Source: Candidatus Aenigmatarchaeota archaeon (GTDB lineage Archaea > Aenigmatarchaeota > Aenigmatarchaeia > QMZP01). Taken from it: a stretch of 21,730 nucleotides of DNA. The stretch covers positions 1-21,730 of the forward strand of contig JAWCLA010000010.1 of the NCBI GenBank assembly GCA_039091855.1, read 5' to 3'. The notes below the pieces were generated by a model. The model made no database searches. It saw only the letters and a program-made list of their open reading frames with translations, and was not told where the DNA came from. The translations under genes were made by a program, and so were the position numbers. Below, in pieces: positions 14,449 through 17,222 of this stretch; the first letter of the stretch is position 1; each line of letters opens with the position of its first letter.

Positions 14449-14517
14449 TTCACTTTGAAGCTTCTTGGGGTTATTTTTATATGCACAGTTTACATAGTTC
14501 AGCTAAAGTTCAGGTGG

Positions 14518-14661
14518 GTAAAGTCTTTGGGATCTCAACCCTTTCTTGGAAAGGGCTGAAATTATATGAACCAATTGCACTGTTATAGTAAAGTCTTTGG
14601 GATCTCAACCCTTTCTTGGAAAGGGCTGACGGGGGTTCGGCCCTTTTTTCAAAAGGGCTGA
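14518..14661. repeat. Two exact 42-bp direct repeats plus a third degenerate hairpin, directly upstream of tRNA-Gly
   Basis: GTAAAGTCTTTGGGATCTCAACCCTTTCTTGGAAAGGGCTGA at 14518-14559 and 14588-14629; then TCGGCCCTTTT-TTC-AAAAGGGCTGA at 14637-14661. Confidence 0.9.
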
Positions 14662-14663
14662 TT

Positions 14664-14821
14664 GCGTGGGTAGTCTAATGGTAGGACGTCACCCTGCCAA
14701 CTCAGGGCAGCTCGGTGGCAATGCGGGTTCGATAAAAGCGAAGTCGGAACTGAAGCTGGAAGGTGTCATCTGACGCCTTCTGTCGGAAATCCGCCTTCCA
14801 TCGAAACTCCCGCCCTACGCA
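14664..14821 (+). tRNA. tRNA-Gly(GCC) with two introns (37/38: 14700-14712; 59/60: 14734-14807)
   Basis: Acceptor GCGTGGG/CCTACGC, D stem GTCT/GGAC, anticodon stem TCACC/GGTGG, loop CT-GCC-A|C, T stem GCGGG/CCCGC, discriminator A; splice helices CTGC/GCAG and TTCG/CGAA each followed by a 3-nt bulge. Confidence 0.9.
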
Positions 14822-14912
14822 TTTCCCAAATTCTTTGGTGATTAACCGAACTTATTTATAAGAACAGAAATCCAATAATATCACATAAAACTCAAAAAAT
14901 CCCGGAGTTCCC

Positions 14913-15359
14913 ATGGCAAATGAAAAACAGCCCCTAAATGATATATCTCTTCCCGCTGCTCCTGAGGCTCCAAGAAGGCAATCTGCCCCTGCTTATGCCA
15001 CAAAGGAGTCGGGAGAGAGTTTTCCACCGCTTTTTATAAAGATTGACAAATACAAGGAGCTCGTACAAAACCTGCAAAGGCTCAAGAGCTATGCTCTTAA
15101 CTTGAGGGATGCTCTTGACGCGCTGAGTGACATAGAGAAGGAGCTCAAGACAGGAATACAACTGACGCAGAAAGCCCTTGACGACTTCAACGCGATAATT
15201 GCCCTGTTGGATGCAAAGCTTGTAAGGCTTTCAGAAGGCGAGGAGGGGGGAGAAGTTGAAACTGCAGAACCGCCCGAAAGAATGGACGACTACATAAAAA
15301 GCGTTTATGACCAGATAGACAAAATCAGGAGCGAGTTGAGGACCATAACCTCTTCCTGA
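14913..15359 (+). CDS. Hypothetical coiled-coil protein (PLFIKIDKY motif)
   Basis: 148 aa; Pro-rich N-terminus followed by heptad-like helices. Confidence 0.8.
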   Translation: MANEKQPLNDISLPAAPEAPRRQSAPAYATKESGESFPPLFIKIDKYKELVQNLQRLKSYALNLRDALDALSDIEKELKTGIQLTQKALDDFNAIIALLDAKLVRLSEGEEGGEVETAEPPERMDDYIKSVYDQIDKIRSELRTITSS

Positions 15360-15431
15360 CTGTTTTTATGAAATCATAGCAGCGCTCTTTCTTAAATGCT
15401 TATAATACCCTTTATTTAATTCTAATATCGT

Positions 15432-15700
15432 GCGGAGGTAGCGAAGTGGACAAACGCGCGGGACTCAAGAGCCTAGGGAAGGCTTCATAGCTCCTTCGGC
15501 TAGTCCGAAGGTGGCGAAGCCACCTTCCCCGTCAACAATAGCAAGGCGAAAGAGCCATCCCGTGGCTTAGTGCCTTCGTCGGTTCGAAAGCCAAGCCTTT
15601 TCCAGGAGCTTCCGCTTCCACAAAAGGCTAGGGTTTACCCAAAAGTTAAACACAATTAACTGTTAAAGCGATTGACTTTGCGAATATCCGGCCCTCCGCA
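15432..15700 (+). tRNA. tRNA-Leu(CAA) with two introns (37/38: 15470-15556; 59/60: 15589-15686)
   Basis: Acceptor GCGGAGG/CCTCCGC, anticodon stem CGGGA/TCCCG, loop CT-CAA-G|A, long variable arm GGC-TTAGT-GCC, T stem GTCGG/CCGGC, discriminator A, followed by a T-tract; lies upstream of rpl18e as in many archaea. Confidence 0.92.
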
Positions 15701-15781
15701 CCTTTTTAAAGTTTAAATATACAGACTGCCAAAAGTAAACGTAATTTATTAACTATGTAATAATGGGTTTAGGAGAATGCT

Positions 15782-16550: not shown

Positions 16551-17119
16551 GCGAAAAAAAGCCAAAACCGGAAAAGAAGCATTCTCAGAAGAAAAAAGAG
16601 CCTTTGCAGGAAAAGGAAAGGGTAAAGAAGCTCATAGAAGAGAAAATGGAAAAGATAAGGAAGCAGGAGCTTGCAAAGAAGGAGGAAAAGCCAAAGGAAG
16701 CAAAGCCAAAACCTCTTCCCCAAACGGTTTTTGTAACAGGAAAGAGAAAGAATGCTGTTGCGAGGGGATTTTTCAGGCCGGGAAAGGGAATAATAAGGGT
16801 AAATTCTGTCCCGCTGGAACTTTTACAGCCGGAGATGCTGAGGTTGAGAATAATGGAACCGCTCATGCTCATAGGTGATGCCTGGAAGGGGTTTGACGCA
16901 AAAATAACGGTAAAGGGTGGTGGTCCGTCCGGGCAGGCGGAGGCAGTCAGGATGGTTATTGCAAGGGGGCTTTCCGAGGTTCTTGGGGAGGATGTAAGAA
17001 AAACATTTTTATCTTATGACAGGAATTTGTTAGTATATGACCCGAGAAGGACGGAACCGCACAAGCCGCCTCATTCTTCTTGGGGACCTAGGAGATACAA
17101 ACAGCGCTCGAAGAGGTAA
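16547..17119 (+). CDS. rps9: 30S ribosomal protein S9 with Lys/Glu-rich N-terminal extension
   Basis: TGKRKNAVAR, VKGGGPSGQAEAVR, YDRNLLVYDPRRTEPHKP, QRSKR; start overlaps the rpl13 stop (ATGA). Confidence 0.96.
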   Translation: MSEKKPKPEKKHSQKKKEPLQEKERVKKLIEEKMEKIRKQELAKKEEKPKEAKPKPLPQTVFVTGKRKNAVARGFFRPGKGIIRVNSVPLELLQPEMLRLRIMEPLMLIGDAWKGFDAKITVKGGGPSGQAEAVRMVIARGLSEVLGEDVRKTFLSYDRNLLVYDPRRTEPHKPPHSSWGPRRYKQRSKR

Positions 17120-17121
17120 AG

Positions 17122-17222
17122 GGGATTAGCATGGAATCCGTAATATCAATTAAAGTTTTTGGGGTAAGGCTTAGACCTTTTGTGGAAGCGGTAGCTCCTG
17201 TAAAAAGGGATTAGCATGGAAT
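17122..17222 (+). repeat. 16-bp direct repeat of the rps10 start region
   Basis: GGGATTAGCATGGAAT at 17122-17137 and 17207-17222. Confidence 0.85.

Follow-up and report, generated by a model that had tools for sequence, protein, structure and literature searches.

Paired introns in archaeal tRNA-Gly and tRNA-Leu genes from a genome in which every tRNA gene found is interrupted

Two transfer RNA (tRNA) genes lie in a 21,730-nucleotide (nt) stretch of archaeal DNA, here called the window, which is contig C2 of the genome assembly G000 (689,355 base pairs (bp) in 38 contigs, 42% G+C, 84% complete). Both loci are very probably working genes, for tRNA-Gly(GCC) and tRNA-Leu(CAA), each carrying two protein-spliced archaeal introns, as does every tRNA gene found in this assembly. 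One intron of each gene sits at the canonical position 37/38 and the other in the T loop, at 59/60. Such introns are already known from ARMAN-2 and the Thermoproteales, and the genome described here is an extreme case. What is new is the lineage, the interruption of all tRNA genes found, the dominance of the 59/60 site, the turnover of intron sites within a genus and the sharing of intron modules with intergenic repeats.

The gene structures, the register of the motif, the enzyme genes and the ortholog comparison are documented below, whereas transcription, cleavage and ligation of the precursors are inferred. Each gene would be transcribed as a two-intron precursor in which the stem of the interrupted arm serves as outer helix, while loop nucleotides 32–35 or 54–57 pair with four nucleotides near the 3′ end of the intron. 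Both splice sites would then lie two nucleotides 3′ of this central helix, one per strand, with the intron side in a relaxed form (helix-bulge-helix, hBH, or bulge-helix-loop, BHL). The likely cutter would be a three-unit, epsilon-type EndA encoded by the same genome, after which RtcB would join the exons and CCA would be added last.

Structure of the two genes and their splicing motifs

Direct reading of the sequence and parsing by script gave the same four inserts (Table 1), and their lengths—13 and 74 nt in tRNA-Gly, 87 and 98 nt in tRNA-Leu—are those given by a first-pass annotation of the window, whose predicted spliced T loops were likewise recovered identically for both genes. The exons of each gene are collinear on one strand, within spans of 158 and 269 nt. 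Freed of the inserts, both sequences form complete cloverleaves with perfect 7-bp acceptor stems, that of tRNA-Gly counting one G-U pair; tRNA-Gly has a normal D arm and the T stem GCGGG/CCCGC, and tRNA-Leu a long variable arm. When spliced by coordinates, they are called by ARAGORN as canonical tRNAs, Gly(gcc) with 71 nt and Leu(caa) with 84 nt. In the unspliced window, neither ARAGORN nor Rfam at its gathering score reports any tRNA. CCA is not encoded at the end of Gly exon 3.

In both T loops, TTCG (54–57) pairs at all four positions with CGAA at intron positions n−5 to n−2, where n is the intron's last nucleotide. The flanking 3-nt bulges are A58-T59-i1 and A-C-T60 in tRNA-Gly, and A58-A59-i1 and T-A-T60 in tRNA-Leu, bulges of this length having been proposed from the sequence at first pass. 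The central helix of the 37/38 introns pairs 4/4 in tRNA-Gly and 3/4 in tRNA-Leu, and the introns of the window thus show the bulge-helix-bulge (BHB) layout, in which a central helix of 4 bp is accompanied by a bulge of 3 nt on either strand. In such motifs the cut falls after the second bulge nucleotide of each strand, in agreement with the 7-nt loops obtained here. On the exon side, the outer helix (h) is present in all four introns, with the T stem or anticodon stem directly adjoining the 3′ bulge. The T-arm motif therefore has the layout of a canonical 37/38 intron moved to another arm: the stem as outer helix, the loop nucleotides and the intron 3′ end as central helix.

The intron side is looser. 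None of the four introns has the strict hBHBh′ form, in which a second outer helix (h′) follows the 5′ bulge at once. In constrained folds, the Gly T-loop intron closes with a helix offset by 3/2 unpaired nt and the Leu 37/38 intron with one offset by 0/3 nt, whereas in the Leu T-loop intron four unpaired nt are followed by a local hairpin; the 5′ splice site of the Gly 37/38 intron lies in a hairpin loop (the BHL form). The first-pass annotation had described the intron-side outer helix as missing from both T-loop introns. This is approximately right, as neither is strict, the one having an offset closing helix and the other the hairpin; its term ‘relaxed motif’ is fair for the same reason. 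All forms in the window are relaxed hBH or BHL, types described for ARMAN-2.

Table 1. Features of the window (strand relative to the sequence as presented).
Feature	Position	Strand	Remarks
tRNA-Gly(GCC) gene	14664-14821	+	two introns
Gly exon 1	14664..14699	+	positions 1-37: acceptor 5′ strand, D arm, anticodon stem 5′ strand, loop to A37
Gly intron 1	14700..14712	+	13 nt, 37/38; CTGC (32-35) pairs with GCAG of the intron, 4/4
Gly exon 2	14713..14733	+	38 to 59: anticodon stem 3′ strand, variable region, T stem 5′ strand, TTCGAT
Gly intron 2	14734..14807	+	74 nt, 59/60, T loop; 3′ end ...CGAA-AC
Gly exon 3	14808..14821	+	T60, T stem 3′ strand, acceptor 3′ strand, discriminator A
tRNA-Leu(CAA) gene	15432-15700	+	two introns
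Leu exon 1	15432..15469	+	positions 1-37
Leu intron 1	15470..15556	+	87 nt, 37/38; central helix 3/4
Leu exon 2	15557..15588	+	38 to 59: anticodon stem 3′ strand, long variable arm, T stem 5′ strand, TTCGAA
Leu intron 2	15589..15686	+	98 nt, 59/60; 3′ end ...CGAA-TA
Leu exon 3	15687..15700	+	T60, T stem 3′ strand, acceptor 3′ strand, discriminator A
Hairpin repeat array	14511..14662	+	ends 2 nt before tRNA-Gly; recurs at C7:5789-5944, C6:4641-4832, C19:7465-7560
Open reading frame, 148 amino acids	14913-15359	+	between the tRNA genes; no Pfam match; conserved, syntenic in G003
Putative TATA-like box TTATAATA	15400..15407	+	about 29 nt upstream of tRNA-Leu; read by eye
Intergenic copy of the Leu T-loop intron module, 5′ two-thirds only	17140..17215 (with flanks 17113-17222)	-	between the S9 and S10 genes

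Interrupted tRNA genes across the assembly and in relatives

A finder that looked for the T stem, the word TTCRA and a paired acceptor, followed by a scored cloverleaf parse, yielded 19 clean tRNA genes in the whole assembly, and nine more with D-loop or anticodon-stem introns were parsed by hand; a first, looser finder had returned 1099 candidates that were largely noise until scored, and a bare scan for the T-loop motif was likewise too noisy. All of the 28 complete genes are interrupted, by 56 introns in total (2.0 per gene; median length 72 nt, range 11–208), and all 28 are called by ARAGORN with the expected anticodon once spliced in silico. The commonest site is 59/60, occupied in 25 of the 28 genes, followed by 37/38 (22 introns), the D loop (seven) and the anticodon stem at 28/29 or 29/30 (two). 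The genome-wide intron invasion that the first-pass annotation had surmised from two genes is thus borne out, and so is its warning that standard scanners may miss such genes. Across the assembly, the Rfam model RF00005 has no match above its gathering score and gives fragments only at E<=10, and ARAGORN makes a single call by default, a mis-parse, and four calls with introns allowed. That nearly all tRNAs escape standard finders follows from the presence of introns in every tRNA gene found.

The same annotation had named intact copies of these isoacceptors elsewhere as the sign that the two loci are insertion-disrupted pseudogenes. No intact copy of either isoacceptor, or of any other tRNA, was found in the 84%-complete assembly with RF00005, ARAGORN, BLAST or a second finder anchored on the 5′ motif and acceptor pairing. 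This second finder independently recovered all 28 genes, and neither it nor BLAST with 33 tRNAs of the same-family genome G005 uncovered a new complete one. Two fragments exist in addition. One is a Pro-like 5′ part on C3 that runs into Ns; the other, the only one of the two that BLAST with the G005 tRNAs found again, opens C21 and is the 3′ portion of a second Ala gene.

The splicing motif recurs across this set in a precise register. Among the 25 T-loop introns, the pairing is 4/4 in 18 and at least 3/4 in all 25, and it falls to 4/4 in none of the 25 when the register is shifted by 1 to 3 nt in either direction; as background, 2.4% of 1690 other 4-mers in the same introns pair 4/4. For the 37/38 introns, 12 of 22 pair 4/4, against a background of 2.1%. 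In both classes, the intron boundaries were fixed by the rule of a 7-nt loop, independently of helix pairing, and pairing in register is far above chance. For the 25 T-loop introns, constraining the fold to the motif costs 0–5.2 kcal/mol relative to the free optimum. On their intron side, four have the strict outer helix, six an offset closing helix and 13 a local hairpin no more than 2 nt from the 5′ bulge; the remaining two, in Thr-CGT (14 nt) and Lys-CTT (43 nt), have neither form.

A comparison with the same-genus genome G003 shows how exons and introns have fared since the two diverged. The locus is syntenic there, in the order SRP54, tRNA-Gly, the conserved 148-amino-acid reading frame, tRNA-Leu and L18e. 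Exon 1 of the G003 tRNA-Gly(GCC) gene is identical and 1 of 71 exon nucleotides differs overall, and its introns sit at 29/30 and 53/54; in G014, the introns of this gene are at 29/30 and 59/60. The hairpin of the G003 29/30 intron matches the G000 Gly T-loop intron. For tRNA-Leu(CAA), introns at both 37/38 and 59/60 are kept in G003, G014 and G010. The stems that these introns split show paired changes across relatives: CGGGA/TCCCG, CAGGA/TCCTG and CTGGA/TCCAG in the anticodon stem, GTCGG/CCGGC and GGCGG/CCGCC in the T stem. The Leu T-loop intron of G010, which belongs to another genus, is homologous to that of G000, while the G003 copy is not alignable.

Orthologs were sought by aligning the spliced G000 tRNAs to the whole of G003 with a spliced aligner, which places introns to within 3 nt in either direction. 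Eleven rows were left out: three without a match, three spurious, three with another isoacceptor or an unclean anticodon (Pro-GGG, Ser-GGA, Gln-CTG) and two at 89% identity (Trp, Ser-CGA). The other 17 pairs have an exon identity of 95.8–100% and the same anticodon once spliced. Their introns differ much more. Of the 34 G000 introns in these pairs, 20 are shared with G003 and 14 are private to G000, and another five occur in G003 alone (20 of 39 sites common); for the 15 T-loop introns, the split is seven shared and eight G000-only. T arms were compared at eight G000-only T-loop sites, seven of them from the pairs (Gly-GCC not among them) and one from Trp. At all eight, the G003 T arm is uninterrupted, and in four cases (Ile, Asp, Gln-TTG, Lys-TTT) it equals the predicted spliced sequence exactly, the other four differing from it by one or two loop substitutions. 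The Gly-GCC gene of G003 shows no break in the T loop or the 3′ strand, but an intron at 53/54 interrupts its T arm. No target-site duplication is visible at the eight T-loop sites that face an uninterrupted G003 T arm.

These insert-free orthologs, with their normal 7-nt T loop, bear on the idea that the T-loop inserts stay in the mature tRNA as expansion segments. The elbow of a folded tRNA depends on pairing between T loop and D loop, which inserts of 14–189 nt would break, and the inserts moreover carry the splicing-motif register; we give this idea next to no weight.

DNA contigs from other sequencing runs carry both genes together with their introns: record 7 of X1 corresponds to 14635-15372 with 1 difference, and record 16 of X2 to 15489-15777. 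The best contig source may be the source sample itself, and these contigs are therefore not counted as independent support. Seven variant sites fall within the two genes, all of them intronic and five in the Leu T-loop intron, and one more lies in the tRNA-Leu 3′ flank. The A>G variant at 14709, in Gly intron 1, preserves its helix pair as T-G. An intron-less allele of the Gly or Leu gene was not seen in the DNA contigs, which drop rare variants and so say little on this point.

Two further explanations of the inserts can be set against this evidence. The first is that both loci are pseudogenes, disrupted by hairpin repeats, with functional copies elsewhere, for instance in the unassembled 16% of the genome. 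The inserts do hold hairpin modules found in intergenic repeats, and the assembly is incomplete. Against this stand the absence of any intact gene beside the 28 interrupted ones, the exact motif register of the inserts, the near-identity of exons between congeneric orthologs whose introns differ, the paired changes in intron-split stems and the freedom of the exons from variant sites, which together make decayed genes very improbable. The second is that the inserts are artefacts of metagenome assembly, with repeats mis-joined into tRNA genes, and it draws on the facts that contigs break or carry Ns at related repeats and that summed depth is high there. Yet contigs of other runs span both genes including their introns, interrupted orthologs occur in separately assembled relatives, and mis-joins would not be expected to hit the register so precisely, which leaves an artefact scarcely credible. 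Functional, spliced genes remain by far the better account of both loci.

One gene of the set stands out in its exons. tRNA-Ala(GGC) (C7:9101-9390) has the G3-U70 identity pair and the anticodon loop TCGGCAT, that is, a C at position 33, where U is nearly universal among tRNAs.

The endonucleases and the lineage

Cleavage at relaxed, non-canonical sites would call for an endonuclease of broad specificity, as the first-pass annotation pointed out, and a good candidate is present. G000 encodes two EndA proteins, one of 408 amino acids (epsilon-type) and one of 198 (alpha-like), along with RtcB (561 bits). Residues 16-408 of the larger protein align with residues 18-387 of PDB 4fz2 at E 1.5e-97, i.e. 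end to end with the ARMAN-2 enzyme (identity and residue numbering from PMC3488258). In a single frame, it has two matches each to the Pfam N and C domains, the three-unit (alphaN, alpha, betaC) arrangement. It also keeps the catalytic Tyr, His and Lys, in the motifs FRIY, WIHS, and SVKK against SVRK; the corresponding residues of the ARMAN-2 alpha unit are given as Y236, H251 and K282 (PMC3488258). The specificity loop (ASL) is present, with an Arg aligned to Lys161 of ARMAN-2 (GVYRQERG against GTYKVSEH). By its likeness to that of ARMAN-2, the enzyme is predicted to be of broad specificity.

Among the genome contigs searched, the closest relatives of the 408-amino-acid protein (54–81% identity) come from records mostly titled Candidatus Aenigmatarchaeota, some titled ‘archaeon’ or Nanoarchaeota, and its identity to proteins of Micrarchaeota-titled records is 39–43%. 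The first-pass annotation had named Thermoproteales and some ultrasmall archaea as the groups in which multiple non-canonical introns occur; judged by its nearest EndA relatives, the lineage looks like Aenigmatarchaeota instead. A strong epsilon-type match was found in 28 of 30 relatives of the same order, whose RF00005 counts are 1–30; over all relatives, they are 1–47 per genome. The two others are G012, which has no match with the 408-amino-acid query, is 80% complete and has 22 RF00005 matches, and G005, with a weak alpha-like match only and a near-normal tRNA set of 47 RF00005 matches, mostly of 71–75 nt and mostly intronless. At the other end, G030, of the same order and another family, has one sub-threshold RF00005 match at 90% completeness, and the extreme state may thus have arisen more than once.

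The smaller EndA of G000 (C12:5287-5883, or L002:1204-1800) is encoded directly downstream of tRNA-Phe; it retains the catalytic Tyr and His and has an Ala where four solved EndAs have the catalytic Lys. Its gene position, its retained residues, its occurrence beside the epsilon-type enzyme in G000 and a weak alpha-like match in 20 of the 30 relatives searched would all suit a scheme in which the genes are spliced, with the epsilon-type enzyme not acting alone at relaxed T-loop sites and the Lys-less paralog as a structural or specificity partner. Two observations make such a partnership unlikely, though not to be dismissed lightly. The epsilon2 EndA of ARMAN-2 by itself is reported to cleave the relaxed 59/60 T-loop intron in vitro (PMC3488258), and the G005 comparison—one contrast among related genomes and not a statistical test—pairs an alpha-like gene only with near-normal tRNAs, suggesting that the alpha-like protein serves ordinary sites. 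Cleavage by the epsilon-type enzyme alone is thus what we consider likely.

Several points weigh against the reading of both loci as working, spliced genes. ‘All tRNA genes’ here means all those found, i.e. 28 complete genes only, and about 17 expected anticodons, Cys and His included, are absent from them in the 84%-complete assembly searched, an incompleteness that arises because contigs break at intron-like repeats. The strict intron-side outer helix occurs in just 4 of the 25 T-loop introns, none of these in the window. Helix score helped to set the boundaries of D-loop and anticodon-stem introns, and register counts at these sites are therefore no independent measure. The Arg at the position of Lys161 means that the broad specificity of the 408-amino-acid enzyme is a matter of inference. 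Finally, sense-strand runs of 5–7 T occur in 11 of the 56 introns (e.g. C36:2470-2730, C37:23671-23831 and C1:28195-28535), always as one arm of an A/T-rich hairpin, and none is present in the four introns of the window. In archaeal transcription, T runs could terminate the polymerase early, and if these runs are terminators, the precursor would be cut before its last exon.

Intron families and comparison with known systems

Of the 47 introns at T-loop and 37/38 sites, 15 have a match at E<=1e-3, either in another intron or at a locus outside. Introns of different tRNA genes are homologous to one another, the hallmark used for transposing introns in Thermoproteales. The Gln(TTG) and Lys(TTT) introns, both private to G000, are 97.5% identical over 40 nt from the first intron nucleotide; between the introns of Ser(GGA) and Gly(TCC), identity is 84% across 87 nt, and between the 37/38 intron of Arg(TCT) and the 59/60 intron of Gln(CTG) it is 90% across 40 nt. 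In the T loop, the introns of Leu(CAA), Gly(TCC) and Ser(GGA) form one family. An intron module also occurs as a solo copy on C33, and the copy between the S9 and S10 genes (Table 1) has on either side a direct repeat of some 22 nt (ATTCCATGCTAATCCC..TTTAC) that looks like an insertion footprint. The Gly T-loop intron, for its part, holds a GGAAGGTG/CGCCTTC hairpin found repeated in many copies in G003; of 17 matches in that genome, most are to query positions 57-151, which fall in this intron or overlap it. Whether this hairpin (GAAGGCG-loop-CGCCTTC) is a K-loop was decided by eye: it has one GA only, and the idea was dropped.

The hairpin repeat array upstream of tRNA-Gly is composite, with a hairpin unit of 42 nt, a linker of 28 nt and a further hairpin, GCCCTTTTTTCAAAAGGGC; its linker is identical among arrays, and the array is therefore not a CRISPR. 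A unit of this array also ends the 37/38 intron of tRNA-Ile(GAT), and copies elsewhere sit upstream of protein-gene promoters. Summed contig depth over the array is 54–168, against about 4.6 in the adjoining genes.

The sharing of modules fits the copying of elements between sites. Intron families shared with intergenic hairpin repeats, and differing between congeneric genomes, point to the intron-rich state as the product of recent and continuing intron gain. As to how the introns arrive, one scenario seems possible, if somewhat short of probable: in a burst of gain, a family of small hairpin elements may place copies of themselves at equivalent positions of the D, anticodon and T loops of tRNA genes, just before the loop end, each bringing a 3′ YGRR plus two nucleotides that complete the splicing motif. 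Should this be true, the arrival mechanism of archaeal tRNA introns would become directly testable. The G000/G003 pair, with its near-identical exons, its 14 and 5 private intron sites in 17 pairs and its families of copies, provides a sharp natural experiment on that question.

The closest known parallel is ARMAN-2 (Candidatus Micrarchaeum acidiphilum), for which relaxed introns are reported at 59/60 in pre-tRNA-Cys and at 53/54 and 59/60 in Pro-GGG, with 56% of its 43 tRNA genes disrupted, the highest share among 55 archaea being 87% (PMC3239211). Judging by these reports, both cases have in common an intron of the relaxed hBH form at 59/60, an EndA made of three units and some 400 amino acids long, an ultrasmall DPANN genome and tRNAs missed by standard tools. 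Unlike in ARMAN-2, all of the 28 genes found here are disrupted, with two introns per gene on average and 59/60 as the commonest site; the Arg in place of loop Lys161 and the second, Lys-less EndA are further differences. The Thermoproteales (Sugahara 2008, Fujishima 2010, cited in PMC3239211) are described as having several non-canonical introns per gene, relaxed motifs and similar introns in unrelated tRNA genes as well, but they use an (alpha-beta)2 EndA rather than an epsilon-type enzyme, whereas here the sites concentrate on three loop positions and modules are shared with intergenic repeat arrays.

Some Asgard families are likewise reported to have a mean of 2.2 intervening sequences per gene, many missed by annotators, with repeated recent gains at BHB-competent sites, and the abstract states that no general route of tRNA intron arrival was found (preprint 10.64898/2026.10.13.758758). 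The present case differs in phylum and in having introns of different genes and positions of up to 97.5% identity over 40 nt that match intergenic elements. The split and permuted tRNA genes of Nanoarchaeum and Caldivirga are described as using the same endonuclease motif (PMC3239211), but nothing is split or permuted here.

The reach of the epsilon-type EndA is also widened. A 2018 paper places this type in ARMAN-1/-2 and Mancarchaeum only (PMC5829648), against the 28 of 30 relatives found here, and a literature search outside subscription journals and bioRxiv supplements gave, among the papers listed and judged by title and abstract start, none tying Aenigmatarchaeota to an epsilon-type EndA or to such a state of its tRNAs. 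In practical terms, annotation pipelines would report the organism, and to a lesser extent its whole order, as being without tRNAs, and tRNAs missed in this way distort completeness and auxotrophy calls for DPANN genomes.

Some smaller observations concern single loci. The TTATAATA motif upstream of tRNA-Leu, which may be a TATA-like box, is also found upstream of the G003 tRNA-Leu ortholog. The 37/38 intron of tRNA-Asp(GTC) (C18:10354-10716) contains three copies of a unit of about 69 nt, and the Ala(GGC) T-loop intron (C7:9101-9390) two copies of a unit that is single in the partial Ala gene (C21:1-160); in these cases introns grow through internal tandem duplication. Finally, the 168-nt 37/38 intron of tRNA-Met(CAT) (C11:12051-12349) holds the C-box-like word GTGATGA and shares a segment of 24–51 nt with at least 10 intergenic places on C33, C4, C13 and C6.

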